A stretch of DNA of 64,000 nt from an uncultured Acidobacteriota bacterium (GTDB taxonomy: Bacteria > Acidobacteriota > Thermoanaerobaculia > Multivoradales > JAHEKO01): the NCBI GenBank assembly GCA_963713825.1, contig CAVQNG010000025.1:800001-864000 (forward strand), in the 5' to 3' direction. Both the position numbers and the translations under genes were made by a program. The stretch's first letter is position 1. The number at the start of each line of letters is the position of its first letter. Positions 44,050 through 62,907 of this stretch are shown piece by piece. Below the pieces are notes generated by a model. The model worked only from the letters and a program-made list of their open reading frames with translations. It had not been told where the DNA came from and made no database searches.

Positions 44050-45144
44050 CTATCGGCCTCGCCAGATTTTCCAGCGGTCGATCACCCGATCCCCGCGAAC
44101 CACCACATACTCGTCGAAACAGGCCACCGCCAAGCAGGAGTGCACCGGTGCGATTCGAACCCGCGCTCCGACAGCAAGAGAGCTGTCTACAATGCCGTGC
44201 TCCTGGGAGAGAGAGCTAACGCGGGTAGGTTTCGGCTGCGGGGTAGGCGGCAGGACTTCGAGAATCTTCCCAAAGTTGGCGTCGCCACCGGTTGTGGAGA
44301 GTGCGTCCTTCGATAGAGCGAGTGCTCCCGCGTCGATGACGCTATGGCTGGCCTCCGGTTGACAGGAGACCACGCTTGCGAGGACGGTCACCGCGCAATC
44401 GTCGATACTGCAAGAGCCTAGCTCTGCCTGCATCTGATCGTAGAAGACGTAGTTGCCGGGCCGCATTTCATCGACGCCCGTTAGGTCTGTCACCACCGAC
44501 ATCGTAGGTGTGGATCCCACCGAGACCGACGGGACTTCGATCCCCGATCCTCGAAGTCTCTCGGCAAGCCTGACAAGGGAGGAGCGCTCTTGCTCAGCCA
44601 CCGCCGACAGCTCGGCTCGGGTGCGGGTCTTGTATGCATGGCCGGCGTGGGTCAGAAGTCCATTGAAGCGGAGAGTCGAGGATGCGTCGAGCCTCTGGGC
44701 CAGCTCGTGGGCGAGGGGACCGTCAGGGTCGACTCCGGCCCTGTGGTAGCCGCAATCGACCTTCATCCAGACTCGAAGAGCATGGCCCGATGCCTCGAGA
44801 GCTTCCAAGGTTGCGATCGAGTCTGCAACGAGCCCCAGATCGATTTCGTGGGCAATGTGTATCGCCTCGTCGAGCCGGTTGAGGATGACAGGAAATGCCC
44901 AGGTCAAATCGTCGAAACCATGCTCGGCGAAGACTCTGGCCTCTTCGAGAGTGGAGACCGTCAGGCCGGAGCACCCCAGATCCCTCTGCAGTCGTGCAAT
45001 CTCCAGGCACTTGTGAGTCTTGATGTGTGGACGAAGCCCGACGCCGAGCGCGGCCGCCCGTTCACTCATTCGGCGGAGGTTTCCTTCCACACGGTCCAGG
45101 TCCAGGATCAGTGCAGGGGTGGGAATCTCTTCGAGGGTCTTCAC
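44050..45144 (-). CDS. Fold-type III PLP enzyme (DSD1 D-serine dehydratase / D-threonine aldolase family)
   Basis: TPALILD, LRPHIKTHK, HRAGV, THAGHAY, GSTPT, RPGNYVFYD, DAGALALS, SQEHG, HSC. GTG start overlaps the addA stop. Confidence 0.9.
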   Translation of the reverse strand: MKTLEEIPTPALILDLDRVEGNLRRMSERAAALGVGLRPHIKTHKCLEIARLQRDLGCSGLTVSTLEEARVFAEHGFDDLTWAFPVILNRLDEAIHIAHEIDLGLVADSIATLEALEASGHALRVWMKVDCGYHRAGVDPDGPLAHELAQRLDASSTLRFNGLLTHAGHAYKTRTRAELSAVAEQERSSLVRLAERLRGSGIEVPSVSVGSTPTMSVVTDLTGVDEMRPGNYVFYDQMQAELGSCSIDDCAVTVLASVVSCQPEASHSVIDAGALALSKDALSTTGGDANFGKILEVLPPTPQPKPTRVSSLSQEHGIVDSSLAVGARVRIAPVHSCLAVACFDEYVVVRGDRVIDRWKIWRGR

Positions 45145-48100
45145 GATCGGGTGTACCTCCTGTCGGCCCAAAGGAACCAGAGCTCGGTATCGGGTCGGCT
45201 CTCGAGGTTCATCGCTCGCTGCACCGCCGCAGCGTACAGGTCCTCTTGCGGGGCATAGGCCTCGGCCCGCGCCGCCAGGTCCTCAGCGGCCTCAATACGG
45301 TCGGTTTTGAAGTCGACGATGATCAGCGCTTTGCTCTCAGGACACCGATAGAGCAGATCGATAGCGCCAGAGTAGAAGCCGGTGGGGCCAGTGTCGTCGT
45401 CCGGTGGTGCCAGAAGCACGGGAATCTCACGTCCCAGCACTGCCTCTTGCAGATCGGTAAATCGTTGCAGCAGCTCGCCGCTGCCGATTCGCTCCAGAAG
45501 CTCGGTTGCCCTTTCAGTGGTAGCGGACAGCTCGCCTTGCGGTGCCGATGTGCTCAGATCTGCAAGTAAGGCCTTGCGTTGCCGCTGCCACTCGGCCTCT
45601 GGTGGCTCCTGTAGATTCCAGGTCTCGAACAGGCGATGGATCAACTCTCCTACCACGCGTGCCCCAGATCGTCGGCCAGCCTCGACCCGAGCCTCCCTGC
45701 CTTCGTCCAGTAGGCGTTCTAGCCGAGCTCCGGCGTCGGACGACATCGAGGACTGGAAGGGTCGGGCCATCCGATGGCCAGCTGCCACCGCCTGATCCGC
45801 CAGCGTCCGCGAGTCGCTCAGGGCCCTCTGTAGCGAGATCGACTGGGAGACCGGTTCGGCTCCTTTGATCTCATCGCCGCTCGAGGCGCCGAGGGCCGGG
45901 AACTTCCACCGTGCAAGTCCGGAGTCCTGAAAGGCGACGCCGTTCTCGAGGCAGTCAGCCGCGAGACGGCCGGGTCGGGTCGGGATGTCGGCTCGATGGG
46001 ACAAGAGATCCAGGTAGGTCTTGGCTCTTTCCGGCGCCGTCTCGGCGAGCTCTTTGGGCCAATTCCCAGCCACGACGAGTCGATCCTCAGCTCGGGTCAT
46101 GGCCACGTAGAGCGTGCGCACGAGCTCGGCGGATTCCACCCGTTGCCGGTGTTCGTCAACCTGGCGAAAGCCGAGCGTCGGACTTCGGAAGAGCACGTAC
46201 TCTGCCGGCTTGCCGGGAATCCATCGCGGGTCCAGGTCGATGGACTGGCGCCGTTTCGGCGGTGGGGAAGCGTGCGCCTGAGCCAGATAGACGTGACGAA
46301 ACTGTAGACCCTTCGCGCCGTGAATGGTCATGACCTGTACTGCATCCAGGACCGCGTCCTCGGGCAGCGCCTCCTTTTCATCCTCGGCTTCCGACACACC
46401 TCGCCTGAGGGACCTCAAGATCGCCTGGATGTCGCCTCCCCGCTCCTCGAGAGAGGTCTCCAGGCGACGGAAGAACCGCTCGAGGTTGGCGAGCCGATAG
46501 TGGCCAAGGTAGCGGGCTGTTTCGGTTACGTCGAACAGGAGTCGTCGGCGCAGTAGCTCCACGAACCGGTCGGGCGGGTCCTGGCGGAAGGATCGACGGA
46601 GGAGAGCCAGGTTGGCGACAGCCTCCTGGACGCTGACCTGCCAATCCTCGATGCTGTCGATCCCCGGTATCGATTCGTCGAGCCCCTTGGCCGCCTCGTC
46701 GATCAGGACCAGGGCCTGATCGAGCCCAGAATCCGAGGGCCCTGCAAGGTCGGTGAGTAGCGCCGGGAAGTCGGTCGCCCAGAGGCGGAGCAATGCAGCG
46801 TCGGGAAGGCCGGCGGTTGCCGAGCGCAGAAATGCCACCACGGCAACGTGATCGACCGGGTGAATGATGGCACGCACCAGAGACGAGGCCTCGATGATCT
46901 CGCGCCGGCGGTAGTATTGCCTGCTACTGCCAACGAGGAAGGGTAGGCCATGATCCCGAAACGCGTCGAGATAGGTCTCCAGGTGGGTCGTGGCGCGCAG
47001 CAGGAGTCCGAAGTCACTCCACGACGCATCAGCCTCGTCATGCAGGCGACGGATGTCACCGGCGATGGCTAGCGCTTCGCACTCGGCCACTGCGTCTGCT
47101 TTGGCGTCGGGCAGCGGAGCCGCGGAGTCATCGCACCTGGGCCAGGAGATCCAGTACTCGACCGCTGCGGGGTCGTTCGCCGTGCTGGAAGAGAAGTCGA
47201 TCGGATCCCGATGCGGGAGGAGCGGCTCGAAAGTGGGCTGCAGGCCTTCGCGGTGGACCATGATGGGATGAAACGCGCGCTCGACCTCCTCCAATACCGC
47301 CGCAGTCGACCGGAAGTTGACAGCCAGTTGGCAGACCTCGGCCCCCTCCCCCTTGGCTCGCTCGACGAACGCATCGAAGGAGGCCAGGTCGGCGTTGCGC
47401 CACCCATAGATGGACTGCTTGGGATCCCCGACGACGAATAGGCCGGGTCGCTTCCCGACGTCCCCTTCCAGAGCCAGGCTTTGAACGATCTCACTCTGCA
47501 GCCGGTCGGTGTCCTGAAACTCGTCGACCAGGAGCTGGCGGAGCCGACCGCGCTCTCGCGCCAGCGCCAGTGAGCCCGGCTTCAAGAGGCGATGCGCTCC
47601 GGCGAGAAGGGACTGGAAGGTGGCTATACCCCTGGCTCGAAGCTCGACCTCCAACTGGGCCATCAGTGGTTGGAGACTGCGGCGCGCCAGATCGAAAAGC
47701 AGTGGGTCGATCTGCAGGAGATGCTTTAGCGTCGTATGGAGCTCGAGAGCCGCTCGGGCGAGGGGCTCTTCGAGGGGCCCGAGGGCCGCACTCTCCGACT
47801 GGTTGAAGCGTCCTGAGCTCCATTCCTGGAGCCGCTTGAGGAGGTTGTCGGTCCACTCGTCAGCGAGAGCGGCCAGAAGGCTCGCCAGAGTGGCTGCATC
47901 GGCATCCTCCGCGGCCGTGGCTGCGTCTCGGCTGTGATCCACGGCAGCGGCGACGGCCAGAGCCAACTTGGAGCGTTTCTGGGATCGAATGGCGGCCCCA
48001 CTAATGTCCTGGAATCGGGCGCAGGTAGTGATCAGGTCCTCGCGAACCCGACGCACCGCCGAGCGATCGAACGGGTCGCGCTCGAGCGCCTGAGCCGTCA

Positions 48101-48794
48101 AGCCCCGGCTGGCCAGCTCGTAGAGGGCGTCGGCCACTTCCTGTGGTCCTTGCCCCAGGGTTGCCAGTCGGGACAGGGGTTCGTCTGGTGAGGTTGAAAA
48201 GGAGCTCTTGGCGGCTGATTCCACGAGCCGATGACAGGTCTCCCTCAGCAGGCGCCCTTCTGCATCGACCTGGAGGTCTGTGGCCAGTCGGGCTTCCAGC
48301 GAGTAGGTCGTGAGCAGGGTTCTGCAGTAGGAGTGGATCGTCCGGATCGTCAGATGGTCCAGCCCACCGATCAGCGCCCGGGCTCGACGCTCGAGGAGGT
48401 CGGTGGAGGGCTCGAATGGAAGCCAGTCCGGACGGAACCAGACCAGCTCGGCAAGATCACCGCCGGCGATCTGCGCCAGGGTTGCGGCGACCCGGTTGGC
48501 CATTTCGGCGGCGGCGGCCTCGGTGAAGGTGATGGCGACCACCCCCTCCAGAACTCGGCGAGCTACGGTCGCCTCGCTGGCCTCGCCTCGCTTGGCAGCT
48601 TCGGGTTCGAGCTCCTCGAGGGTTTGGAGTGCCCCTTCCCAGCCCGGACTGAGGCACCAGGAGAGAATCCGCGAGACGAGGATCGTGGTCTTGCCGGTAC
48701 CGGCGCCTGCCATCACCACCAGGGGGCGATCGAATACCGAATGAGCCGCTCGGCGAGCTCTCTCGTCGCGAACCTGCAAATCACTCGACATCAT
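45141..48794 (-). CDS. addA: AddA/RecB-type helicase-nuclease
   Basis: AGAGTGKT, ITFTEAAAAEM, TIHS, VDEFQDT, VGDPKQSIY, NFRS, MTIHGAKGLQF, YVAMTRA, and C-terminal nuclease GAIDLL...VDFKT. Confidence 0.9.
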   Translation of the reverse strand: MMSSDLQVRDERARRAAHSVFDRPLVVMAGAGTGKTTILVSRILSWCLSPGWEGALQTLEELEPEAAKRGEASEATVARRVLEGVVAITFTEAAAAEMANRVAATLAQIAGGDLAELVWFRPDWLPFEPSTDLLERRARALIGGLDHLTIRTIHSYCRTLLTTYSLEARLATDLQVDAEGRLLRETCHRLVESAAKSSFSTSPDEPLSRLATLGQGPQEVADALYELASRGLTAQALERDPFDRSAVRRVREDLITTCARFQDISGAAIRSQKRSKLALAVAAAVDHSRDAATAAEDADAATLASLLAALADEWTDNLLKRLQEWSSGRFNQSESAALGPLEEPLARAALELHTTLKHLLQIDPLLFDLARRSLQPLMAQLEVELRARGIATFQSLLAGAHRLLKPGSLALARERGRLRQLLVDEFQDTDRLQSEIVQSLALEGDVGKRPGLFVVGDPKQSIYGWRNADLASFDAFVERAKGEGAEVCQLAVNFRSTAAVLEEVERAFHPIMVHREGLQPTFEPLLPHRDPIDFSSSTANDPAAVEYWISWPRCDDSAAPLPDAKADAVAECEALAIAGDIRRLHDEADASWSDFGLLLRATTHLETYLDAFRDHGLPFLVGSSRQYYRRREIIEASSLVRAIIHPVDHVAVVAFLRSATAGLPDAALLRLWATDFPALLTDLAGPSDSGLDQALVLIDEAAKGLDESIPGIDSIEDWQVSVQEAVANLALLRRSFRQDPPDRFVELLRRRLLFDVTETARYLGHYRLANLERFFRRLETSLEERGGDIQAILRSLRRGVSEAEDEKEALPEDAVLDAVQVMTIHGAKGLQFRHVYLAQAHASPPPKRRQSIDLDPRWIPGKPAEYVLFRSPTLGFRQVDEHRQRVESAELVRTLYVAMTRAEDRLVVAGNWPKELAETAPERAKTYLDLLSHRADIPTRPGRLAADCLENGVAFQDSGLARWKFPALGASSGDEIKGAEPVSQSISLQRALSDSRTLADQAVAAGHRMARPFQSSMSSDAGARLERLLDEGREARVEAGRRSGARVVGELIHRLFETWNLQEPPEAEWQRQRKALLADLSTSAPQGELSATTERATELLERIGSGELLQRFTDLQEAVLGREIPVLLAPPDDDTGPTGFYSGAIDLLYRCPESKALIIVDFKTDRIEAAEDLAARAEAYAPQEDLYAAAVQRAMNLESRPDTELWFLWADRRYTRS

Positions 48795-51700
48795 CAGGAG
48801 TTTCCATCTCCTGCACGATCGGCCTCGTCGAGCTCGGCAAGTCGCTTCGAGTCCAGAACCCAGATTCCGATTCCACTGCGCTCGGCGCTGGCGGGCTCGT
48901 CGGGTCCGACGACGTAGGTCTCCAGGTGCTCCGCCATCCAGGTTCGCAGACGACCTCGCGCTCCTGAATCGTGCCGCAAGCAGGCTTCCGCCACCTCGCA
49001 GAAGTCACAACGCCGCGGCGCCTTGTCCCTGTCCGCTTCGATGAGGCGAGGCAGGAAGGAGCCCTGTCTCCAAGCATCGATCAGAGTCGAAGTGGCCCTG
49101 TGGAAGGCACGTTGCGCTTCCTCGTTGCCATTGTCGATGCCAATGTCACGAGCCGCTTCCGGGCCTTCGATGTCGGGCTTGAGAAAGAGATATCTGCCAC
49201 GCGATCGCGGTGTTCCTGCGGCCTGAGCATAGGCAATGGCCTGGAGCGACTTACCAGCCCGAATCCTCTTGATCAGGTTCTTTTGGCGCGTGGCGCCGGT
49301 TGCAGCGGTGCTGATGTCGTTCCTGCCGGTCTTGTAGTCGACCAGATTCTCATGGCCGCCATCGATATCCACCCGGTCTGCCCGGAAGTGGAGGTCTTGC
49401 TCTTCGCCGTCTTCGAGGCGCAACGTCAGCCGACCTTCGATCTCCACCGCCACGGTGGGCACTCCGACTCCGGAGGCCCACTCGAGGTGGCAGGCCTGGT
49501 CGAGGTATGGCCTGGCGACTCGTGCGAGCATCTTGGAGAAGCCCCGCATTCCGATGCCGTGCCGGCGGGCCACGAGTTCTGCCTGGCGGTCCAGGAGGTC
49601 GTCGAGTTCCCGGTCGGCGGGCCACTTCACGGTGTGCGGAGCCATGGAGCGAGCTGTCTCGAGGTCGGTGGCTGGAGTTGGTAGCTGAGACCTGACGATG
49701 CGCTCGAGGCAACGGTGGACCAGGTCGCCCACCAGCACGGGGCTGATTCCGGGCAGGATCTCCAGAGGATCGGGGAGGGCCTCGAGCCGCAGCAGTCGCT
49801 CGAGAAACGTCTGCCAGGGGCAGGCTGCAAGGGCCTCGAGGGCAGTGACGTAGAGACGACGCCCGGCCCGCAGGTCCTGGTCGTCGAGAATGGGTCCGAC
49901 GAAGCCGAAGAAGGGACCCAGCCTCCCGAACGTGAGCTCTCCTTCGCCTCCACCCCGGACGGGGTCCAGTTCGCCGAGAACTCGGAGTCGAGCTCTTGCG
50001 AGCCTGTCAGGGCTGGAAATTGCAGGCAGAAGCTCGGCCTGGTCGATGTACTTCCAGTCCACTGGAGTTCTGGTGCTCTCGGCCATCGCTGCGGAGAGGA
50101 AGCCTTCGAGATCCTCTCGAGGTCGCCAAATGGCGGCGTTGACAGCATGTTCGTAGGCCGGTCGGGAGATTCTCGATCCGTTGAATTCGGCTTTCGGCGT
50201 CAGAGTGAACAGGGGCTGGACGGTTGGCGGGTCACGCCATTCTTGGAGATTCTGTGCCGCCTCCGACCAGCGCATTCTCTCGACGAGTGGCGACACGCTG
50301 AGCGGGCTGCCATCGTCGTCGACGCCCTGCCAGGAGAGAGTCACGGCAGGACTGGAGGCGAGGAGCTGCGCGAAGAGGAAGCGCTCCTCTGAGAATCCCG
50401 CGAGCTTTCGGGCGAGGTCAGGCAGGACTCCGTAGCCCTCCCGACTCATCACCTGGCGCAGCGAGTCCGGAAGCAGCGGGTCTTCTCGCACCACCCGTGG
50501 AAAGACTCCCCGATTCAGTCCGGCGACGAAGAGATGCTCGAACGTGCGTCCACGAGCTTCGGTCACATCGAGAACTTGGACGCCGCCGCCGTCGCCGCCG
50601 AGAGAATCGCGGCCGAGCTCTGACCACCCCGAGTCCAGCCACGTCACCAGCTCATCGAAAGTCAGGGGCAGGGTAGCGCGGGTCTGCTCCAGGAGTCGGT
50701 CGGCCGTTCGGTTGAGCACCAGAGCCTCCTCTCCATCAGCCGGCCACTGCAGGTCGTCGAGGAGGAATCCTCTCAGCTCATTGGCGTGTTGCTCGAGTGT
50801 CTTCACCTTGTACCAGCGATCGAGGCGCTGGCAGATTCGGCGCGCTTCGTGCCTTGCTCGTACAACCTCGAGGCCCGGGATCGTGCGGCGCTCCAAGTTG
50901 CGATTCGGGATTCCTTCAGCGTCCTCGTGCTCGGAGAACGTGCCGTGAACGGGCAAGGGGAGGCTGTTGTCCGCCGTGTCCCTGGCAAGCTCGAGATCGG
51001 CCGTTTCCTCGAGCCTCGCGGCGCCGAAGCCATAGAGGGCTAGCTTCAAATCGAAGCTGTCTTTTTCACTCCATGCCAAACTAGCGTCGAGCCAGCGCTC
51101 GACCGGCGCCGAGCTGCCCTGTTTCAGGACGTCCAGGACGGCCCCAACTCGCCTCCCGAACTCGGTTCGCGGTCCGCCAGCACCAATGGCCGAGAACGGA
51201 ATTCCCATGCGCCAGAATTGGGTGCGAAGGATCGAAACATAGGGGTCGAGCTGTCGCGCCACGACACCGATGCTCTCTGGTCTGGCCCCGCCGTCGAGCA
51301 GGAGGCGAATCTGATCCGCTATGTGACGGATCTCGGCTTGACCACCCAGAGATCGAAAGAGTTGTATCGAACCCCGTGGATGACTGGTTGGTTCGATATC
51401 CGCATCTCCAGTAACCAGGAAGAGGCGCTCCTCGAATCGACGGCCGAAAGCGATCCCCTCATCGGTTTCCTCGGGCCACGCCGGGTCGGGAGGTCGGTCG
51501 AGATACAAAATGCCCGGCTTCGCTTCGAGTAGTGCCTGAATCAGGTCGGTCGCAACACCCGTCGCGTCGGCGAATCCGTAAACCAGGACCTTTCTGGCTG
51601 CAACGGCCTCCGGGTGGGCTCGAATCCACTCTGCGGCGTGCCGCATGAGAGAGGAGGGCCTCGTGTCGCCCTCTTCGAAAAGGTTCTCAGCACACCGGCT

Positions 51701-52228
51701 GGCGATCCTGATCAGAGCCCGGGACCGTTCCAGTTCTGCATTGGAGGCCCGCTCGAGGCCCTCCTCTTCCAGGACTTCGTCGATGGCTTCTGCCAGGGCC
51801 GGGTCGAACCCGGCATCCATGAGGTCTTCGATCGGACGCACCACCGAGGTGTAGCCATCATGTAGATGGTCGAGCGAGCGCCGCAGGGAGGGTTCCTGTG
51901 AGGCCAATCGCCGCACCAGAATGGGCAGCAGGTCGGCACCTCCCTGGTCGATCCCTGCGGTTCGAGAAGCGATGTCTCTGGCGATCCCGTAGAGAGTCAG
52001 ACACTGGATCCCAGCCGAGGCCCCTCGCTGATGGGCCACGATTCGGTCCAGGAGATGCAACCGGAGACTTTTCGAGGGGACTACGACCAGAAGGGGCTGC
52101 GCCAGAGCTTCATCGCCGGCACTCTCGAGCTCGTCGTCGAGGTCTGCAAGCAACAGCCGCTCGCAGGCCATGGGTCCACGACCTACCCGAAGTCTGGGCC
52201 TTTGGGCTGGGCGAATCCCTTCGTGCAC
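48794..52228 (-). CDS. addB: AddB-type inactive helicase / PD-(D/E)XK nuclease partner
   Basis: Upstream of and coupled to addA. RADRVD...VDYKT nuclease motif, and ACPW plus CDFC...C cysteines typical of the AddB Fe-S staple. Confidence 0.85.
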   Translation of the reverse strand: MHEGIRPAQRPRLRVGRGPMACERLLLADLDDELESAGDEALAQPLLVVVPSKSLRLHLLDRIVAHQRGASAGIQCLTLYGIARDIASRTAGIDQGGADLLPILVRRLASQEPSLRRSLDHLHDGYTSVVRPIEDLMDAGFDPALAEAIDEVLEEEGLERASNAELERSRALIRIASRCAENLFEEGDTRPSSLMRHAAEWIRAHPEAVAARKVLVYGFADATGVATDLIQALLEAKPGILYLDRPPDPAWPEETDEGIAFGRRFEERLFLVTGDADIEPTSHPRGSIQLFRSLGGQAEIRHIADQIRLLLDGGARPESIGVVARQLDPYVSILRTQFWRMGIPFSAIGAGGPRTEFGRRVGAVLDVLKQGSSAPVERWLDASLAWSEKDSFDLKLALYGFGAARLEETADLELARDTADNSLPLPVHGTFSEHEDAEGIPNRNLERRTIPGLEVVRARHEARRICQRLDRWYKVKTLEQHANELRGFLLDDLQWPADGEEALVLNRTADRLLEQTRATLPLTFDELVTWLDSGWSELGRDSLGGDGGGVQVLDVTEARGRTFEHLFVAGLNRGVFPRVVREDPLLPDSLRQVMSREGYGVLPDLARKLAGFSEERFLFAQLLASSPAVTLSWQGVDDDGSPLSVSPLVERMRWSEAAQNLQEWRDPPTVQPLFTLTPKAEFNGSRISRPAYEHAVNAAIWRPREDLEGFLSAAMAESTRTPVDWKYIDQAELLPAISSPDRLARARLRVLGELDPVRGGGEGELTFGRLGPFFGFVGPILDDQDLRAGRRLYVTALEALAACPWQTFLERLLRLEALPDPLEILPGISPVLVGDLVHRCLERIVRSQLPTPATDLETARSMAPHTVKWPADRELDDLLDRQAELVARRHGIGMRGFSKMLARVARPYLDQACHLEWASGVGVPTVAVEIEGRLTLRLEDGEEQDLHFRADRVDIDGGHENLVDYKTGRNDISTAATGATRQKNLIKRIRAGKSLQAIAYAQAAGTPRSRGRYLFLKPDIEGPEAARDIGIDNGNEEAQRAFHRATSTLIDAWRQGSFLPRLIEADRDKAPRRCDFCEVAEACLRHDSGARGRLRTWMAEHLETYVVGPDEPASAERSGIGIWVLDSKRLAELDEADRAGDGNS

Positions 52229-52568
52229 AATGTCGCTATGCGAGCATGCCGACAGGGCACTGTCAATAGAGACTCTCTATCCGGAGCACCGTACGGACAA
52301 GATTGGTGGCAAACGGTCGATCGCCTCTCACCTGAGCGTCGAGACTAGATGGCAGAAGGACAGTGGCCATTGGGACCTCGTTGCATCTCGGATCCCACGT
52401 CTACGGTCCGGCTTCTGGGACAGCTGAACGCTGCCAGATACTAGCTCAGATCGAGCCAGGGAGAGGATCTGATGCCAGTCGAGAGATCCTGAATGAGGCC
52501 CTGACCGTGTAGGCTTGATGTAGGCTATGGCGAGGCTCTGAGGGTTGACCGGGCCGAGAGAGGAGACC

Positions 52569-53870
52569 ATGGGGGAGCTGATACTGATCGTAGACGACGA
52601 GCCGGGCATCCTGACCGCGCTGGCCGGCGTCTTGAACGATGAGGGATACGAGACGGCCTGCACCCAGAGTGGGGAAGAGGCTCTGACTTTGTACGAGGAA
52701 CAACACCCGGCGGTCGTCTTTCTCGATATCTGGCTGCCCGACCGGGATGGGCTGGAAACACTACAGGCTCTCCGGGAAGCGGACCCGGCGGCCGCCGTGG
52801 TCATGATGTCGGGACATGGCACGGCCTCGACGGCTGTCAAAGCGATCAAGATGGGTGCCTTCGACTACGTCGAAAAGCCCATCTCCTACAACCAGGTCGT
52901 GGATAGCGTAGTGGGCGCTCTGAAATATCGTCAGTCTCTTGCCTCCGATGCTTCACTTCTGAGCTCCCTGGAGCGGACGAAGACCCGGCTCGACCAGGAA
53001 CGAAATCTGACGCCGGCACCGGAGCTGCCCCTGCTCCAAGAGGGTACACAGCCTCAGCGCACCATCCATAAGAGCGTTGTCTTATACGGTCTCGGCTTGC
53101 ACTCGGGTCGTCGGACCGGAATGGCCATCCAACCGCTACCCCCGAACAGTGGCATCCACTTCGTTACGCTACCCGCCAATACCCACATCCCGGCGTTTGT
53201 CGGCGAGGTCGCCGAAACCGACTACGCCACGACGGTCTCCAGCAACGGCGACAGCATCCGGACGGTGGAGCATCTGCTGTCGGCGCTGCACGCCTATGGC
53301 GTTACCAATCTACTGATCAAGGTGCATGGGGAGATCCCGGTTCTGGACGGCTCGGCGCTGGAGTTCTGCAAGTCGCTGGAGGATGCCGGAGTCGAAGAGC
53401 AGAACGAGCCACGCAAGGAGCTCGTCATCGATCGCCGCTACGAGGTCGGGGACAACGAAGAGAAGGTCTTGTCGGTGGAACCTTCCGACGATTTCTCGAT
53501 TTCCTATCGGCTGAGCTATCCGCCTCCCGTTGGGGAGCAGTCCTTCGACTTTCGCCTCACGACCCCTCAGCAGTACAGACAGGAGATCGCACCGGCCCGA
53601 ACTTTCGGGTTCATGCGTGACATGAAGATGATGAACGAGCTCGGACTGGCTTCGGGTGGAAGGCTGGACAACTGCATTCTGGTCGGTGAGGACAACGTGA
53701 TCAACACAGAGCTTCGATTCGCGGACGAGTTCGTCAGGCACAAGATTCTGGACATCATTGGGGACCTCTACCTGTTGGGCTATCCGATCCGAGGACGGGT
53801 GACCGCTCAGCTGACCGGGCATCGCAATAACATCGCGCTGCTGCGTACGATTCAGGAGGCCAACGTCTGA
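52569..53870 (+). CDS. lpxC: Response-regulator receiver domain fused to UDP-3-O-acyl-GlcNAc deacetylase LpxC
   Basis: Receiver: ILIVDDE, FLDIWLP, MMSGHG, EKP. LpxC from about 53055: QRTI, GLHSG, TVEHLLSAL, EIPVLDGS, APARTFGF, RHKILD..GDLYLLG, GH. AGGAG RBS. Confidence 0.92.
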   Translation: MGELILIVDDEPGILTALAGVLNDEGYETACTQSGEEALTLYEEQHPAVVFLDIWLPDRDGLETLQALREADPAAAVVMMSGHGTASTAVKAIKMGAFDYVEKPISYNQVVDSVVGALKYRQSLASDASLLSSLERTKTRLDQERNLTPAPELPLLQEGTQPQRTIHKSVVLYGLGLHSGRRTGMAIQPLPPNSGIHFVTLPANTHIPAFVGEVAETDYATTVSSNGDSIRTVEHLLSALHAYGVTNLLIKVHGEIPVLDGSALEFCKSLEDAGVEEQNEPRKELVIDRRYEVGDNEEKVLSVEPSDDFSISYRLSYPPPVGEQSFDFRLTTPQQYRQEIAPARTFGFMRDMKMMNELGLASGGRLDNCILVGEDNVINTELRFADEFVRHKILDIIGDLYLLGYPIRGRVTAQLTGHRNNIALLRTIQEANV

Positions 53871-55369
53871 CTCTGGAGCACTCGAAGGTTTGTATGGTGG
53901 CAGCGGAAGCCGTACCGTTTGCCAAAGTCGGAGGCCTGGGTGACTTCACGCCGGCGCTGGCCCAGAATCTGAGCCTGGTCGGGCACGAGGTGCGTCTGTT
54001 CTTCCCCTTCTACGGGAGCATCGACCGCCACTCCCTGGATTTCGGACCGGTAGAGTTCCTGCAAGACGTCGAAGTCGAGATGGGTGCACGGGTCATTCAG
54101 TTCTCGGTCATGTACACGTGGCTTGCGGGCAGCTCTCTGCAGGTCTATCTCGTCGATTGCCCCGAGCTCTACCATCGACCGGGTGTCTATACCGAGGATC
54201 CGGACGAGGTGGTTCGATTCGGTTTGCTGTGCCGGGCGGCTCTCGAGAGCTGTCAGCGGATGGGCTGGTCCCCCGACATCATCCACTGCAACGACTGGCA
54301 CACGGCCTTGATCCCCACCTATCTTCGTGCACTCTACGCATGGGACGAGCTGCTGGCAGGCGCCAAGACCGTGCTCACCATGCACAATGTTGGTTATCAG
54401 GGGATCTTCAGCGCCTCGGTGCTAGAGGATCTCGGGCTGGCAGACTACTCCTCCTACTTCGATGCCGAGGACTTGCAGTCGGGCACGGTAAATCTCCTGA
54501 AGACGGGGCTACTGCATGCCGACCAGCTGACCACGGTGAGTCCGACGCACGCCGAGGAGATCCAGACACCCGAGTTTGGTATGGGGCTGGAGAGCTTGCT
54601 GCGATCCCGCTCCGACCGGCTGGAAGGAATCTTGAATGGTGTCGACTATGGCGAGTGGAATCCGGCTACCGACTCGCTGATTCCGTTCAACTACTCGGCA
54701 GAAGATCTGAGTGGCAAAGAGCGCAACAAGCGGGCGCTGATGCAGGATCTGTCACTGCCCTACGATCCGCAGGCGCCGGTCCTGGGCGTCGTCTCTCGGC
54801 TCGTGCACCAGAAGGGGATCGACCTTCTCGAGGGCGCATTACCAGAGCTTCTGGACTCGTTGGACCTCCGTCTGGTGGTTCTGGGAACCGGGGAACCGCA
54901 GTTCGAATCGATGTTTCGGTCGCTGCACAACCAATTCCCGCGCAAGGTGTCGTTCTACAGGGGCTATAGCAACGAGTTGGCCCATCGAATCGAAGCCGGG
55001 AGTGACCTGTTCCTGATGCCCTCACTCTACGAGCCCTGCGGGCTGAATCAGATGTACAGCCTGCACTACGGCACCGTACCCGTCGTGCGGGCCACCGGTG
55101 GCCTGGCCGATTCCATCCAGCCTTGGGATCCCAGGGCCGGTACCGGTACCGGCTTTCTGTTCGAGGAGTACTCGAGCGAGGCCCTGTCCGAAGCCGTCCA
55201 TCGCGCACTCAATGCCTTTCGGGACCAACCCGCTTGGCGCAAGCTGATGCTCAACGGTATGGGCCAGGATTTCTCCTGGAGAAAGCAGGTCGGGAAGTAC
55301 GAAGCGCTTTACGAGCGCGTGCTGCAGAGGGCGGATGAGCGACCTTCTAGCTCCCAGCTCGAGATCTGA
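53867..55369 (+). CDS. glgA: Glycogen synthase; likely non-canonical CTG start at 53867 (first ATG is at 53894)
   Basis: KVCMVAAEAVPFAKVGGLGD, HCNDWHT, TMHNVGYQG, TVSPTHA, GILNGVD, SRLVHQKG, PSLYEPCGLNQM, RATGGLAD. Confidence 0.93.
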   Translation: MTLEHSKVCMVAAEAVPFAKVGGLGDFTPALAQNLSLVGHEVRLFFPFYGSIDRHSLDFGPVEFLQDVEVEMGARVIQFSVMYTWLAGSSLQVYLVDCPELYHRPGVYTEDPDEVVRFGLLCRAALESCQRMGWSPDIIHCNDWHTALIPTYLRALYAWDELLAGAKTVLTMHNVGYQGIFSASVLEDLGLADYSSYFDAEDLQSGTVNLLKTGLLHADQLTTVSPTHAEEIQTPEFGMGLESLLRSRSDRLEGILNGVDYGEWNPATDSLIPFNYSAEDLSGKERNKRALMQDLSLPYDPQAPVLGVVSRLVHQKGIDLLEGALPELLDSLDLRLVVLGTGEPQFESMFRSLHNQFPRKVSFYRGYSNELAHRIEAGSDLFLMPSLYEPCGLNQMYSLHYGTVPVVRATGGLADSIQPWDPRAGTGTGFLFEEYSSEALSEAVHRALNAFRDQPAWRKLMLNGMGQDFSWRKQVGKYEALYERVLQRADERPSSSQLEI

Positions 55370-55387: not shown

Positions 55388-56494
55388 CTACTCCAACCCC
55401 TCTTTGGTCTCCGCGACCAGGTGGTCGACGACCGCCTCCAGATCTCCCGTCTCCTGATAGACGGCCAGCTGCCGATCGGCGCTCGTCCCCTCTTTGAGGA
55501 TCGTGTGCACGTACTCGACTTCCTTGCGAACGTTGAGCTCGTCGACGACGTCCTCGATGATCTCCAGAAGCTCGCAAATCAGGTCCCGGGCCGGTACTTC
55601 CCGGCCGCGTCCGAAGTCGATCAGGTTGCCCTGAATACCGTAGCGGACGGCCCGCCATTTGTTCTCTTCGATCAGATGATGACGGTAGCGGCGCCACGAG
55701 CGATTCGACTGTCGAAGGCGGATGAGTTTGCCGACGATGGCCAGCATGAGGGCCGCCAGACAGATGGCTTCGTCCACCTTGGTGCAGATGTCGCAGACTC
55801 GAAACTCGAGTGTCGGGAAGTTCGGGTGTGGGCGAATGTCCCACCAGATTGTGGTGGCATCTTGAATGCTGCCCGTCTTGACCAATAGGTCGACGAATCG
55901 TTGATGCTCGGCCCAGGACTGGAACGAAGGCGGTGGTCCGGATCGCGGTAGACCCTCGAAAACAATGGACCGATAGGACTTGAGGCCGGTGTTCCGACCA
56001 TGCCAGAAGGGTGAGCTGGTCGACAGCGCCAGCAGATGAGGCAGGAAGTATCGGGCCTGATCCATGACGTCGATCATCAGCTCGCGATCGTCGATCCCGA
56101 TGTGGACGTGCATCCCGAAGATGAGCATCCGTCGGGCTACTTCGGCCATCTGCTCGAGGTGGCGCGAGTAGCGCTCCATCTCGGTGACTTCTTGGTTCTT
56201 CCAACTCGAGAAGGGGTGCGTGCTGGCAGCCAACACCTGGAGCCCGTTGGACTCGGCGAGCTCGGCCACCGACTGGCGCAGTCGCACCAGCTCGGAGCGA
56301 GCCTCTTGCATGTCATGACAGATGCGACTGCCAACCTCGACCTGGGACTGCAGTAGCTCGGCCTTGATCTGATCTTTGAGTACCAACTGTCCCTGCTCGA
56401 GGATCTCCTGGATGTAGGAGGTCAGCTCGCAAGTGGCCGGGTCGATGACCTGGTACTCCTCTTCGATTCCGATGGTGAGCTTGGGTAGCGCCAT
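55388..56494 (-). CDS. Carboxylate-amine ligase (YbdK / glutamate-cysteine ligase family 2)
   Basis: TIGIEEEYQ, SQVEVGS, ASTHPF, FGMHVHIG, SSPFW, WWDIRPHP, TLEFRVCD, ENKWRAVRYG. Confidence 0.93.
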   Translation of the reverse strand: MALPKLTIGIEEEYQVIDPATCELTSYIQEILEQGQLVLKDQIKAELLQSQVEVGSRICHDMQEARSELVRLRQSVAELAESNGLQVLAASTHPFSSWKNQEVTEMERYSRHLEQMAEVARRMLIFGMHVHIGIDDRELMIDVMDQARYFLPHLLALSTSSPFWHGRNTGLKSYRSIVFEGLPRSGPPPSFQSWAEHQRFVDLLVKTGSIQDATTIWWDIRPHPNFPTLEFRVCDICTKVDEAICLAALMLAIVGKLIRLRQSNRSWRRYRHHLIEENKWRAVRYGIQGNLIDFGRGREVPARDLICELLEIIEDVVDELNVRKEVEYVHTILKEGTSADRQLAVYQETGDLEAVVDHLVAETKEGLE

Positions 56495-56636: not shown

Positions 56637-59063
56637 ATGACGTCTGAGAACACCATGTCGCCTCAGGAGCGCGTCACGTTTCACTTCACTCGCGAGAGCA
56701 TCGTTCGCGACTACCGGATCGCCTACCAGAGTCGACAGGCCAGCCTCCTTGGCCGCAAGGAGGTGCTCACCGGCAAGGCCAAATTCGGCATTTTCGGTGA
56801 TGGCAAGGAAGTGGCTCAGGTCGCTCTGGCGCGGGCCTTCCGCAAAGGCGACTTTCGGTCGGGCTACTACAGGGATCAAACCCTGATGTTTGCGCTGGGG
56901 CTGCTGAGAATCGACGAGTTTTTCGCGCAGCTCTATGCCGATTCCGAGCCGGATCGAGATCCGTCGTCGGGCGGCCGACAAATGAACTCGCACTTCGCGA
57001 CTCGACTGCTGACCGAAGACGGCAACTGGAAGCCGCTGACGGACTCGTTCAATTCGACAGCCGATCTGTCACCGACGGGAGCGCAGATGCCGCGCCTCGT
57101 TGGTTTGGCGTTTGCTTCGAGACTCTACCGGCACCTGGAAGGGCTCGATCACTTGAGCGGATTCTCGAAGCATGGAGATGAGATCGCCTTCGGGACCATC
57201 GGTGACGCCAGCTGCGCAGAAGGGGTCTTCTGGGAATCCGTCAACGCTGCTGGCGCTCTGAAGGCTCCCATGTTGCTGTCGATTTGGGACGATGGCTACG
57301 GTATCTCGGTGCCGACCGAGTTTCACATCACGAAGGGCCATTTGTCGTCGATTCTGCGGGGCTTCCAGCGTGCCCCGGGCGACGACGAGGGGTTCGATCT
57401 CTACACCGTCAAGGGCTGGGACTATCCAGCCTTGTGCGAGACGTACCTCAATGCCGCCGAAGTCGTGCGGCGAGAGCATGTCCCTGCCATCGTCCATGTG
57501 GCAGAGCTGACGCAGCCGCAAGGTCATTCCACCTCTGGAAGCCATGAGCGGTACAAGTCGGAGGAGAGGTTGGGCTGGGAGCGAGACCATGATTGCCTGG
57601 TTCGCATGCGGGAGTGGATGATCGAAGAGAAAATCGCGCCGCACGAAGAGCTGAGCCGTTTTGAAGACGAGGACCGGCAACTCGTCGAAGAGCTCCAACG
57701 TCGCGCTTGGGAGAGTTGTCGCAGGCCGGTCGAAGATGAGAAGAGGGTCCTGATCCAGCTGACTTCGGAGCTAGCCGAGGCCTCGGCCCATGAGGCCCAG
57801 ATCGAAGGCGTTCTGAAGCGCCTGGGGCGATTGGCCAATCCGCACCGGCGGGATCTCCTCGGGGCAGCGCAGGAGTCACTGATCCACACCCGTACGGAGA
57901 AGAGCCAGATTCGGGACCAACTGGTCGAGTGGCGCGACGAGATGGAGGAGGCCGGTTACCAACGCTACGGTAGCTATCTACACAGCGAGTCGGAGGCTTC
58001 GGCTCTCACGGTGGAGGTCGTCGAGGCACAGTTCAGCGACAGCTCTCCGCTTGTCAACGGCTTCGAAGTTCTCAATCGGTGCTTCGACGAGGCACTCGGC
58101 CGCTATCCCAACCTGGTGGCGTTCGGTGAGGATGTCGGGCAACTCGGTGACGTCAATCAGGGATTCATGGGACTGCAGGAGAAGTACGGTGACCTGAGGG
58201 TTTCGGACACCGGAATCCGCGAGGCTACGATCCTCGGTCAGGCCATCGGCATGGCATTGCGAGGTCTGCGCCCTCTGGCGGAGATTCAGTATCTCGACTA
58301 TGTACTCTACGCTTTACAGATCATGTCGGATGACCTGGCAACTCTGCACTGGCGTACGCGAGGCGGTCAGAAAGCTCCTGTGATCGTCCGTACACGCGGC
58401 CACCGGCTCGAGGGAATCTGGCACTCGGGCTCGATGATCTCCGGCATTCTGAATCTGGTCCGTGGAATGCACGTTTGCGTGCCCCGCAACATGGTGCAGG
58501 CAGCCGGCATGTTCAACACCCTGCTGCGGTCGGACGATCCGGCTCTGCTCATCGAGGTGTTGAACGGCTACAGGTTGAAAGAGCGTCTGCCGGACAATAT
58601 CGGCGAGTTCACGGTCCCCCTCGGTCGACCCGAAGTCCTCCGAGAAGGCCGGGATGTGACGCTGGTGACGTATGGAGCTTGCTGCCGCCTGGCGATCGAA
58701 GCAGCTGAAATGCTGACCCAGGTGGGAATCGACCTGGAGGTCATCGACGTCCAGACGCTCGATCCCTTCGATCTGGAGGGGAGGGTGAGGGCCTCTCTCG
58801 AGAAGACGAACCGCATCGTGTTTCTCGACGAGGACGTCCCCGGCGGCACGACCGCCTACATGATGCAAAAGGTCCTGGAGGTTCAGGGAGGGTTCGATTG
58901 GCTGGACGCTCCGCCCCGCACGTTGTCAGCGCAGGCACATCGACCGGCCTACGGGTCCGATGGTGACTACTTCTCCAAGCCCAACCGCGAGCAGATCTTC
59001 TCGACGGTCTACGACCTGATGCATCACTCAGACCCAGCCCGCTTTCCTTCACTCGGTACCTGA
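56637..59063 (+). CDS. 2-oxoacid (probably branched-chain) dehydrogenase E1, fused alpha/beta
   Basis: GYYRDQ, GGRQMNSH, GDASCAEG (ThDP), GHSTSGS, then beta part FGEDVG, DTGIRE, AEIQYLDY, GIWHSG. Confidence 0.9.
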   Translation: MTSENTMSPQERVTFHFTRESIVRDYRIAYQSRQASLLGRKEVLTGKAKFGIFGDGKEVAQVALARAFRKGDFRSGYYRDQTLMFALGLLRIDEFFAQLYADSEPDRDPSSGGRQMNSHFATRLLTEDGNWKPLTDSFNSTADLSPTGAQMPRLVGLAFASRLYRHLEGLDHLSGFSKHGDEIAFGTIGDASCAEGVFWESVNAAGALKAPMLLSIWDDGYGISVPTEFHITKGHLSSILRGFQRAPGDDEGFDLYTVKGWDYPALCETYLNAAEVVRREHVPAIVHVAELTQPQGHSTSGSHERYKSEERLGWERDHDCLVRMREWMIEEKIAPHEELSRFEDEDRQLVEELQRRAWESCRRPVEDEKRVLIQLTSELAEASAHEAQIEGVLKRLGRLANPHRRDLLGAAQESLIHTRTEKSQIRDQLVEWRDEMEEAGYQRYGSYLHSESEASALTVEVVEAQFSDSSPLVNGFEVLNRCFDEALGRYPNLVAFGEDVGQLGDVNQGFMGLQEKYGDLRVSDTGIREATILGQAIGMALRGLRPLAEIQYLDYVLYALQIMSDDLATLHWRTRGGQKAPVIVRTRGHRLEGIWHSGSMISGILNLVRGMHVCVPRNMVQAAGMFNTLLRSDDPALLIEVLNGYRLKERLPDNIGEFTVPLGRPEVLREGRDVTLVTYGACCRLAIEAAEMLTQVGIDLEVIDVQTLDPFDLEGRVRASLEKTNRIVFLDEDVPGGTTAYMMQKVLEVQGGFDWLDAPPRTLSAQAHRPAYGSDGDYFSKPNREQIFSTVYDLMHHSDPARFPSLGT

Positions 59064-59882: not shown

Positions 59883-61313
59883 CTAGTTGGCTCCGACCGT
59901 CTCCTCGAAGGCTCTGGCACCCCAGCCGAAGGCCTCCTCATTGAGCTCGATCATGGCGCAGTTGTGTCGCAGCGCCTGTCGAACGGACGTCAGGAAGGTC
60001 TCCTTGGGGAACAATTGGGTCGCAGCCTGCAGGGCTCCCAGTGCTACGACGTTTTTCACTTTGGCGGCGCCCAGATCCATGGCGATCTCGGTGCATGGGA
60101 CTCCAACCATCGTTACCGATGGATCGAGCTCTGGCGGCTCCGCAATGACGGAGCTGTCGTAGACGACCGTGCCGCCAGGCAGGACGGTGGGTCCGAACTT
60201 CTCCAAGCTGGGGGCGTTGAAGGCGACCAGCAGGTGGGGTCTCGGAGCTGCGGGAGACAGCACTTCTTCGTTGGCGACGTGCACGTCGGCATAGGAGGTG
60301 CCGCCCCGGGACTCCGGCCCATAGCTGGGGATGTGCGTGGAGTCGAATCCTTCGGTCACCGCTGCCTTGGCGATGAGCATCGCCGCGGTCTGAGCCCCGT
60401 CGCCGCCGGCGCCTGCCAGTTTGAGGCCAATGTCGTGCTCGTCGATGTGGACCGGAAACCCCTCGCAGTGGCGCTCGACCGCTGCCGATGTGGCACCGAC
60501 CACCTCGACGATCCGGTCCGGTTCGAAGCTCGGTTTGTCGAGGTGGAACCAGGGGTCGTTGTCCAGATCCTTCTTGACGCCGAGTGGGAAGATGGGTTCC
60601 ATGTTCTCCCTAACCCATTTCTCCGTTTCGACAGGAGTCAACTTGAGATGGGTCGGGCACTCCGCGAGGACCTCGACGAATCCCACACCCCGATTGTCGA
60701 TCTGACACTGCAGGGCCTTCTTGATGGCTTTCTTGGTCCGCATCCGGAGCTTGTTGTCGTACAGTGCGACGCGCTCGACGTAGACCGTGCCGTCGAGCAA
60801 GGCCATGGTCTCGGCAACCTTCATCGGTAGACCGGTGATGCGCTCGCGGCCCGCTGGCGTCGTGGCGCTCTTCTGACCCATCAGCGTGGTGGGGGCCATT
60901 TGACCGCCCGTCATCCCGTAGATGGCGTTGTTGACGAAGATGACGGTGAGGGGAATGCCCATTTGCGCCGCCTGGACGATTTCCGCGATGCCGATAGAAG
61001 CAAGGTCGCCATCTCCCTGGTAGCTGATCAGGACCGCGTCCGGATTGGCAACCTTGTGGCCAATGGCGACGGCCGGAGCCCGACCATGAGCGGCCTGGGT
61101 ATTGCCGACGTCCAGGTAGTAGTACATGAATACGCTACAGCCGACAGGAGAGACCGCGATCGTGCGATCCTGGATCTCCAGCTCGGCGATGCACTCGGCG
61201 AGGTACTTCTGGATCAACCCGTGACCACAGCCGGGGCAATAGTGGGTGCTCTGCCCTTTGAGTCCCTCGCCATGGGAGTGACGTTCGAACTTCTCATAGA
61301 AGACGTTGCTCAT
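59883..61313 (-). CDS. 2-oxoacid:ferredoxin oxidoreductase, fused beta-gamma subunit (Vor-like)
   Basis: THYCPGCGHG, SPVGCS, HGRAPA, YQGDGD, NNAIYGMTGGQ, then gamma part AGAGGDG, PSYGPESRGGTS, NVVALGA. Confidence 0.92.
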   Translation of the reverse strand: MSNVFYEKFERHSHGEGLKGQSTHYCPGCGHGLIQKYLAECIAELEIQDRTIAVSPVGCSVFMYYYLDVGNTQAAHGRAPAVAIGHKVANPDAVLISYQGDGDLASIGIAEIVQAAQMGIPLTVIFVNNAIYGMTGGQMAPTTLMGQKSATTPAGRERITGLPMKVAETMALLDGTVYVERVALYDNKLRMRTKKAIKKALQCQIDNRGVGFVEVLAECPTHLKLTPVETEKWVRENMEPIFPLGVKKDLDNDPWFHLDKPSFEPDRIVEVVGATSAAVERHCEGFPVHIDEHDIGLKLAGAGGDGAQTAAMLIAKAAVTEGFDSTHIPSYGPESRGGTSYADVHVANEEVLSPAAPRPHLLVAFNAPSLEKFGPTVLPGGTVVYDSSVIAEPPELDPSVTMVGVPCTEIAMDLGAAKVKNVVALGALQAATQLFPKETFLTSVRQALRHNCAMIELNEEAFGWGARAFEETVGAN

Positions 61314-62716: not shown

Positions 62717-62907
62717 AACACTCCTCTTCAGATCTTGCAGGAGTCCGCTAGAAACGGCGCGCTTGAATCGTCGGGCCGACGAGGTGGAGCGCCTTCGGAG
62801 CACTCGCGAAAAGCATGCACGACACGGCGGTTTTCGCCAATACCCGATGAGGTGGGACGTCCCACCCACCTGTAGGGGTGGCCGCGGTTTTCAGTACGAG
62901 AAATGGT

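Follow-up and report, generated by a model that had tools for sequence, protein, structure and literature searches.

A receiver domain fused to the only LpxC of an Acidobacteriota bacterium suggests a built-in phospho-switch on lipid A synthesis

In a 64,000-nt stretch of DNA from an uncultured sediment bacterium of the Acidobacteriota (class Thermoanaerobaculia; GenBank assembly GCA_963713825.1, contig CAVQNG010000025.1, positions 800,001 to 864,000 of the forward strand; the whole stretch is hereafter the window), a single gene at 52569..53870 on the + strand encodes a response-regulator receiver (REC) domain joined through a linker to a complete LpxC. LpxC carries out the committed step to lipid A, is the control point of lipopolysaccharide (LPS) synthesis and is a major antibiotic target. 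The REC-LpxC protein is the only LpxC detected in its genome and represents an apparently undescribed family; a built-in phospho-switch on the only LpxC suggests a direct, undescribed control of outer-membrane synthesis.

Results

The REC-LpxC gene is intact and recurs in the phylum

The initial annotation described the gene as one uninterrupted 433-codon open reading frame (ORF), which the ORF list and the translation bear out. The list holds a single open frame at 52545..53870 (+), 441 aa long if begun at a TTG at 52545, and translation from the ATG at 52569 gives 433 stop-free residues, with the stop codon following. Because the starts of 20 homologues from other genomes are a Met or Val equivalent to ATG 52569, this ATG is likely the true start. 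A purine-rich, Shine-Dalgarno-like stretch, GAGAGGAG (52556..52565, +; read by eye), ends 4 nt before it. A scan of 52150-54000 for promoters and terminators returned 0 sites of either kind, compared to 0.6 and 1.1 expected, an uninformative outcome.

Homologues were sought among 5.8 billion proteins, for which 8000 candidates were scored and 7993 passed an E-value of 0.001. Each of the best 120 of these 7993 relatives shows the two Pfam domains together. Their lengths are 428-462 aa, their identities to the window protein 69-97%, and those with a named source are from Thermoanaerobaculia or Acidobacteriota. In a sample of 401 genomes of the phylum, we found a full-length match in 27 (42-100% identity), the match in the other 374 being weaker or confined to the LpxC part; tallies over the 401 take in three unpublished genomes (G024, G049 and G152), none of them among the 27. 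The spread is patchy, with the fusion present in 4/4 genomes of the window's family and 10/11 of family f49, absent from all nine genomes of family f4 in the window's order, and mixed in families f11 and f22. Two contigs from other samples cross the domain junction: a 1985-nt sediment-metagenome contig spanning 52300-53425 with 3 differences and, from another run, a 470-nt RNA-library contig covering part of the gene (52697-53166) with 7 differences. The latter is only a hint of transcription, since an RNA library may contain DNA. An assembly chimera and a singleton fusion, the two possibilities raised in the initial annotation, can both be excluded, the first by the 120 relatives of the same architecture and the two junction-crossing contigs, the second by these relatives and the 27 phylum genomes. 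Databases annotate proteins of this family as plain LpxC or as NtrX.

The fusion carries the sole, full-length LpxC

Residues 163-429 (53055..53855, +) constitute a full-length LpxC domain with catalytic and zinc residues present. Pfam PF03331 (E 2.9e-88) matches over profile positions 1-267 of 268 at 296.3 bits, against a cut-off of 27, and the NCBIfam lpxC equivalog TIGR00325 scores 248.9 bits against a cut-off of 187.25. All of the receiver and LpxC motifs named in the initial annotation were found in the protein. For LpxC they are E234-H235, H391-K392...D395 and G417-H418; solved LpxC chains match at E 2.9e-51, with the EH, RTFGF, HKILD and GH stretches aligning residue for residue. The TVEH, HKILD and GH stretches align with a Pseudomonas aeruginosa LpxC chain, in which EH is counted as E77-H78. 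We take the aligned zinc and catalytic positions to be equivalent to those of the Escherichia coli numbering. The zinc ligands of E. coli LpxC are His79, His238 and Asp242 (PMC10254716). Residues E234, H235, T345, H391, K392, D395, D399 and H418 are invariant among 48 aligned fusions and, across 61 fused proteins, seven of them are kept in every case, with T345 kept in 60 and changed once to Ser.

The protein ends early relative to its gamma-proteobacterial counterparts. Residues 159-428 align to 6-280 of the 305-residue P. aeruginosa chain, in P. aeruginosa chains of 303-305 residues the partner of residue 428 is one of residues 278-280, and the Pfam LpxC match ends 4 residues before the end of the protein, such that the C-terminal tail of roughly 25 residues is missing and no E. 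coli-type degron tail was found. The E. coli FtsH degron is the C-terminal tail LAXXXXXAVLA (PMC12444477); as the window protein stops at the LpxC core, the degron region is absent.

We also asked, as the initial annotation had proposed, whether this is the only lpxC. The fusion is the sole PF03331 match in its own genome (96.36% complete), and one match each was found in 10/10 further fusion-bearing genomes, giving 11/11. LpxB and LpxD are encoded elsewhere in the own genome. By this reasoning the fusion is the housekeeping LpxC, and the sole LpxC match together with the encoded LpxB and LpxD indirectly predicts deacetylase activity on UDP-3-O-acyl-N-acetylglucosamine.

An NtrX-like receiver with a conserved phospho-site

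The receiver occupies residues 5-113 (52581..52907, +) and is of the NtrX/NtrC type, matching Pfam PF00072 (E 6.9e-30) at 103.9 bits against a cut-off of 30.2. Its motifs are D9 D10 E11, D53 in FLDIW, S81 in SGHG and K103 in EKP. NtrC-family receivers in the PDB match the N-terminus at E 1e-23 to 1e-19. The best receiver-bearing NCBIfam model is NtrX (NF051870), which scores 106.3 bits, far from its cut-off of 600, and is matched only at profile positions 4-122 of 452, corresponding to the receiver part. As judged from these matches, the protein has an NtrX-like, NtrX-derived receiver but is not an NtrX.

The predicted phospho-acceptor, Asp53 (codon 52725..52727, +), is invariant in the 48 aligned fusions together with D9, D10, S81 and K103, at identities down to 43%. 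In the larger set, which has representatives down to 34% identity, the acceptor Asp is present in 59/61 fused proteins of all three lengths described below; it is lost in P0150 (Asn) and P0151 (Ser). P0151, a long form, also lacks the acidic pair and the Lys. The LpxC active sites of P0150 and P0151 are intact, and the two proteins represent natural "switch-dead" variants usable for comparison.

A linker between the domains was correctly anticipated by the initial annotation, which put it at roughly 40 aa; the Pfam limits give 49 residues (114-162; 52908..53054, +). Based on an AlphaFold2 model and the alignment consensus, helix alpha-5 continues into the linker, which also contains a stretch of low confidence and a clade-conserved P-x-L-P-L-L motif. 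The model, calculated from a 48-row alignment, has a mean predicted local distance difference test (pLDDT) value of 85.2 and a predicted template modeling score (pTM) of 0.71. It has a standard receiver fold with helix alpha-5 extended to residue 126 and short helices after it (helices at 107-126, 128-135 and 137-140). The pLDDT drops below 50 over residues 131-144, and LpxC is modeled confidently from residue 156 onward. A two-chain prediction of receiver 1-128 against LpxC 150-433 (48-row alignments) gave 0.00, where the mark is 0.32, a value with no bearing on intramolecular contact. The Pfam scan of the protein found neither an AAA+ nor a helix-turn-helix (HTH) domain, in agreement with the initial annotation, and we read the linker as the likely remnant of a lost AAA+/HTH part.

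Short, middle and long fusions share one kind of LpxC

A survey of REC plus LpxC architectures, which the initial annotation had suggested, was carried out by searching 1.84 billion cluster representatives, with Pfam scans of 39 matches. This revealed three architectures around one kind of LpxC: a short REC-LpxC form of 412-461 aa, to which the window gene belongs; a middle REC-HTH_8-LpxC form of 491-505 aa; and a long form of 650-749 aa with REC, Sigma54_activat, AAA_lid_14, sometimes HTH_8, and LpxC. By source names, Nitrospinota have both long and middle forms and Entotheonellia have middle forms, and one long form was named NtrX by JGI (the Joint Genome Institute). Scanning one genome per species for further loci, we detected more long forms in metagenome-assembled genomes (MAGs) labelled Thermodesulfobacteriota, Desulfomonile and Nitrospina/Nitrospinaceae, and short forms in MAGs labelled Thermoanaerobaculia, Holophagae, Terriglobia, Syntrophobacteraceae, Desulfocapsaceae, Thermodesulfovibrionia, Binatia/Binataceae and "Deltaproteobacteria". 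The forms thus occur across several lineages. The receiver, noted initially as resembling NtrX/NtrC receivers, shows more than a likeness, the long relatives being whole NtrX-like regulators joined to LpxC.

The regulator parts are degraded to different extents across the family. The long forms match AAA+ weakly (E 1e-7 to 1e-41), compared to about 1e-70 for NtrX-like regulators encoded beside ntrY. An alignment of 16 long forms shows replacement of the Walker B Glu and no GAFTGA-like loop. The AAA+ part is wholly missing from the middle and short forms. Because the phospho-site has been kept while the AAA+/HTH parts decayed or vanished across the same spans, we conclude from the alignments that selection is acting on the switch.

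We then placed the LpxC domains in an unrooted tree of 130 rows (IQ-TREE quick search, LG+G4) comprising 35 (half) of 70 unfused representatives and all other rows. One side of a branch with a Shimodaira-Hasegawa-like approximate likelihood ratio (SH-aLRT) support of 99 consists of 59 ordinary LpxCs, among them the two LpxC-FabZ fusions and every one of the 25 sampled unfused sequences from Acidobacteriota. The opposite side holds all of the short, middle and long forms, as well as three short, apparently unfused proteins (P0157, P0187 and P0199) that may be fragments. The window protein belongs to a 17-member clade of short forms (support 98). Interspersed with the long and middle forms, short forms appear at five or more separate positions. 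We read this as a probable single fusion of an NtrX-type regulator with LpxC, followed by repeated AAA+/HTH loss and spread between lineages, the order of events being our reading, as an unrooted, quick-search tree does not give it.

NtrY-type kinases adjoin related fusions

No HisKA-type kinase core was found in the window using a query that is blind to kinases of other core types; genome-wide there are 23 HisKA-type matches, and on the contig the closest of them precedes the window by about 56 kb. The initial statement that the window has no histidine kinase therefore holds for HisKA-type cores but is incomplete, because an orphan NtrY-type kinase is encoded 421 kb away on the same contig.

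A link to kinases of this type came from related loci. In 9/24 of these, an NtrY-type kinase of 734-779 aa (NtrY_N, HAMP, PAS, HisKA and HATPase_c) is encoded directly upstream of the fusion on the same strand, adjoining long forms in L059 and L060 and short forms in L070, L073, L074, L080, L082, L087 and L093. The labels of the respective MAGs include Thermodesulfobacteriota, Syntrophobacter(aceae), Thermodesulfovibrionia, Binatia/Binataceae and delta proteobacterium. A DUF4390 gene precedes the kinase in L060 and L074, and the gene sizes in L062, a locus outside the domain scan, are those of L060.

In the own genome the NtrY-type kinase does not adjoin the fusion. NtrY_N matches there once, in a kinase of 737 aa (HAMP-PAS-HisKA-HATPase_c; C25:431205-433418, -). 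Together with the DUF4390 gene directly upstream of it, this kinase forms an orphan DUF4390-NtrY pair (G000:C25:431205-433998) located 421 kb upstream of the window gene. SmpB is encoded upstream of the pair and SelB downstream, and there is no regulator among the 4 called genes flanking it in each direction. This kinase is the best own-genome match of 9/9 fusion-adjoining kinases (302-402 bits, full length), with the next match at 182-216 bits and over the C-terminal half only. Its full-length relatives (E <= 1e-70) occur in 354/401 phylum genomes. We give the orphan NtrY-type kinase about an even chance of being the phosphodonor in the own genome.

Across the window and 20 Acidobacteriota loci, in which neighbor genes of GC-rich loci were picked by a heuristic rule (GC at third codon positions, GC3), the neighborhood is not conserved and there is no regularly adjacent kinase or lipid A gene. 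Scattered neighbors include a HAMP kinase and a sigma54 regulator in L024 and Reg_prop kinases in L025 and L027; of lipid A genes, only LpxL in L023 and LpxD in L030 were found near the fusion. L032 and L033 encode a PilS-like kinase; only in L032 did the scan identify a sigma54 regulator next to it. As this arrangement was seen in just one family, PilS/PilR was rejected as a general partner. In that family of short fusions, f49, the loci L032 and L033 contain T2SSF, the PilS-like kinase with its 6TM_PilS domain and DUF6677, a type IV pilus-like regulatory set. The sigma54 regulator is found in L032 and L031, the scan of L033 being without the 1.7-kb stretch past the kinase, and DUF507 genes are close. 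This pilus-like context is unlike that of the other clades.

Unfused lpxC genes cluster with ntrY

Among genomes with an unfused LpxC for which both coordinates were listed, lpxC is directly upstream of ntrY on the same strand in 27/58, the two genes being separated by about 230-430 bp or 650-1140 bp. This count covers the listed rows only, comes from related genomes with G024 and G152 left out, and is not a statistical test. In the remaining 31/58 the two genes do not adjoin, for the most part because they are on different contigs. In 6/8 loci scanned with Pfam (L144-L151) the order is lpxC, [DUF4390], ntrY and an NtrX-like sigma54 activator. The other two are without a regulator: G341 has lpxC and ntrY, and G186, from the window's order, has lpxC, DUF4390, ntrY and SelB. 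The own genome shares the DUF4390-ntrY-SelB layout with G186, but there is no lpxC at this spot, the fused gene being 421 kb away instead.

The window receiver resembles the regulators of these clusters. It is 45-56% identical (109-134 bits) to NtrX-like receivers encoded beside ntrY in relatives and 43-52% identical to the receivers of long and middle fusions, compared to 42% (92.8 bits) for the best own-genome paralogue and at most 38% for the other 18. This best paralogue is an orphan NtrX-like sigma54 activator of 462 aa (G000:C1:316041-317429), to which the NtrX-like regulators of the clusters also give their best own-genome scores (377-436 bits); no kinase core was found near it. The alpha1 and beta5-alpha5 segments of receivers are thought to set the choice of kinase partner. 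In these segments the window receiver shares 11-16 of 29 positions with NtrY-linked receivers and 4-13 with the 19 own-genome paralogues. With NtrY and an NtrX-like activator both present as orphans in the own genome, a branched pathway can be envisaged, and the most economical model would have NtrY signal to both the NtrX-like activator and REC-LpxC.

Genes around the fusion

We also noted several neighbors of the fusion gene. A GlgA-like starch synthase gene (window 53894-55369, +) begins 24 nt past the fusion stop codon and likewise follows in the same-genus locus L014, while in L027 and in the Holophagae locus L095 a branching-enzyme-like gene and a GH57/DUF3536 gene are directly upstream of the fusion. 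The recurring glycogen genes may indicate that carbon storage is linked to the use of UDP-GlcNAc, or may be there by chance. An AddAB-like pair (window 45141-52228, -) is divergent from the fusion gene and is also present in L014. Its products are a UvrD-type helicase of 1217 aa that includes a PD-(D/E)XK nuclease domain, and a PD-(D/E)XK protein of 1144 aa. A gene for a single-chain E1 dehydrogenase of 808 aa (E1_dh, Transket_pyr and Transketolase_C; window 56637-59063, +) is found close to the fusion in the window, L014, L015 and L028, four loci from the window's order. In the window it is flanked by a GCS2 carboxylate-amine ligase gene (55388-56494, -) and by 2-oxoacid:ferredoxin oxidoreductase genes (59883-62869, -).

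Discussion

Phosphorylation-dependent control of the window LpxC is plausible and has been strengthened here, because the acceptor Asp is kept in 59/61 fused proteins, the fusion is the sole LpxC in 11/11 genomes, and NtrY-type kinases adjoin the fusion in 9/24 related loci; on balance we consider such control somewhat probable. We infer from the sequences that phosphorylation takes place, that NtrY is the donor and that LpxC activity responds. In the mechanism that we propose, an NtrY-type sensor kinase, for which the orphan DUF4390-NtrY pair is the own-genome candidate, would phosphorylate Asp53. Phosphorylation would alter the alpha4-beta5-alpha5 face and the helix running from alpha5 into the linker, and this change in the receiver would in turn alter LpxC output. 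Lipid A flux could then follow an envelope-related signal post-translationally, with no transcriptional step, and the same kinase may also serve the NtrX-like activator at C1:316041-317429. Known enzyme-output response regulators act by occlusion or dimerization, with phosphorylation relieving occlusion in CheB and driving dimerization in PleD. By analogy with NtrYX of Rhodobacter sphaeroides, the phosphorylated state might lower LpxC output.

Several observations weigh against this proposal, in particular against its kinase step. No adjoining kinase was found in the own genome or in L083, L084, L088 and L096, none is conserved across the 20 Acidobacteriota loci and, given this lack of adjacency in Thermoanaerobaculia-type loci, the pairing of kinase and fusion rests on orthology and elimination. 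The orphan NtrX-like activator could be the only partner of NtrY, and a second kinase (C34:119.4-120.7k) resembles NtrY kinases in its C-terminal half. The likeness in the specificity segments is modest, with overlapping ranges, and the lpxC-ntrY adjacency counts come from related, non-independent genomes and listed rows only. Finally, 2/61 family members are without the acceptor Asp, and LpxC is therefore able to work without the switch.

An unlikely alternative, though one with some standing because a distant LapB-like protein exists, is that the receiver controls the amount of LpxC, its phospho-state exposing or hiding a degradation signal or recruiting a protease such as FtsH, Lon or ClpXP, which would amount to an in-built counterpart of E. 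coli proteolytic control. LpxC is subject to proteolysis through FtsH/LapB in E. coli and possibly Lon in alphaproteobacteria (PMC12444477), residues 131-144 of the linker are predicted to be disordered, and in two loci of family f49 (L030 and L091) a ClpB-like AAA+ gene is directly upstream. The own genome encodes a 469-aa tetratricopeptide repeat (TPR) protein with a C-terminal zinc ribbon (G000:C25:147223-148629) that aligns with the LapB models across their whole length. However, its score of 83 bits is far under the cut-off of 363, and the Zn_ribbon_LapB model also matches in Gram-positive controls. In addition, the C-terminal tail bearing the E. coli degron is absent from the window protein, and most scanned genomes have no protease gene linked to the locus.

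Still less probable is a leftover receiver, inherited from the ancestral NtrX-LpxC fusion and acting only as a constitutive dimerization or folding module for which phosphorylation has lost its relevance. Progressive loss of regulator parts across the family, disappearance of the acceptor Asp from two members and the lack of an adjoining kinase in the window's clade would all fit a leftover. A leftover would not be expected, however, to keep five phospho-site residues invariant in 48/48 sequences and the acceptor Asp in 59/61 while AAA+ and HTH parts decayed or were lost over the same spans, a pattern expected from selection on a switch.

We regard as slightly more doubtful again a role for the receiver as a phosphate sink or competitor, by which the amount of LpxC would tune NtrY-to-NtrX signaling with catalysis unaffected. 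Phosphate sinks are known among single-domain receivers, and the co-occurrence of orphan NtrY and orphan NtrX-like activator in the own genome is consistent with one. Yet a sink needs no fusion to an essential enzyme and leaves the replacement of the normal lpxC in 11/11 genomes unexplained, and in nine related loci no regulator other than the fused protein is encoded directly after ntrY. An assembly or gene-calling artefact joining two genes can practically be dismissed given the stop-free frame, the shared architecture and length of the best 120 relatives, the 27 phylum genomes, and the DNA and RNA-library contigs across the junction.

Returning to phosphorylation-dependent control, comparison with known systems brings out what is unusual about the fusion. 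With LpxC it shares the full-length catalytic domain and the EH, HKxxD and GH residues, differing in the added N-terminal receiver and linker, in the missing gamma-proteobacterial tail, and in that its LpxC domain belongs to a group that is almost wholly fused and set apart (SH-aLRT 99) from the 59 ordinary LpxCs. Another natural LpxC fusion, LpxC-FabZ (PRK13188 type; P0245 and P0265 among the representatives), is tied to membrane-lipid balance, but there the partner is C-terminal and metabolic, a dehydratase, and the LpxC falls among the ordinary ones in the tree. Response regulators with enzymatic outputs include the CheB methylesterase, the PleD/WspR cyclases and RpfG. These likewise join a receiver to an enzyme domain via a flexible linker, whereas the output here is a zinc-dependent biosynthetic enzyme of a core pathway rather than a signaling enzyme, and no mention of LpxC as an output was found in the literature searched.

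Another close relative is the NtrYX family, whose signal and core function are still debated. As in that system, the best receiver model is NtrX, and the long relatives retain REC, AAA+ and HTH, without the GAFTGA-like loop. The window protein, by contrast, is without AAA+ and DNA-binding parts and has an enzyme as its output. NtrY-type kinases and DUF4390 genes adjoin the fusion in related loci, as in the NtrYX family including PlrSR-PlrP of Bordetella. DUF4390 (PlrP) is reported to be a periplasmic third component of the NtrYX-family PlrSR system (PMC13001219). NtrYX represses lpxC transcription in R. sphaeroides and Caulobacter crescentus (PMC12444477), and loss of ntrYX in R. sphaeroides raises lpxC mRNA 8.8-fold and increases LPS, with no NtrX site at lpxC (PMC7240162). 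The known effect on lpxC is transcriptional and indirect, while here the regulator is joined physically to the enzyme.

The initial annotation knew of no characterization of this mode of regulation, and we likewise found no description of it; no receiver-LpxC or NtrX-LpxC fusion, nor lpxC-ntrY clusters, were described in the literature searched, though response-regulator censuses in subscription journals might mention one. The words "fusion", "fused", "receiver" and "response regulator" are absent from a 2025 review of lipid A regulation, and the modes of LpxC control covered in the passages drawn on here are FtsH/LapB proteolysis, a possible role of Lon, a Neisseria LapB homologue, and transcriptional control by NtrYX and ChvGI (PMC12444477). 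A receiver inside the sole LpxC would be a different mode of control, in which a sensor kinase acts on the enzyme itself. REC-LpxC also offers a simple in vitro system, one protein plus a phosphodonor, for allosteric regulation of LpxC.

The finding widens from one odd gene to a family in several bacterial lineages with a candidate kinase, and the fusion represents a physical link between NtrYX and LPS that is independently backed by the lpxC-ntrY clusters. A broader reading, to which we give slightly less than even chances, is that NtrY-type kinases gate the committed step of LPS synthesis directly and post-translationally in at least Acidobacteriota, Nitrospinota and Thermodesulfobacteriota, and that control of LPS and the envelope is an ancient core task of NtrYX. 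If true, the fusion series, running from REC-AAA+-HTH-LpxC by way of REC-HTH-LpxC to REC-LpxC, and the lpxC-DUF4390-ntrY-ntrX clusters would be a "Rosetta stone" for the role of NtrYX in LPS control, and would explain the so far indirect effect of NtrYX on lpxC in alphaproteobacteria.

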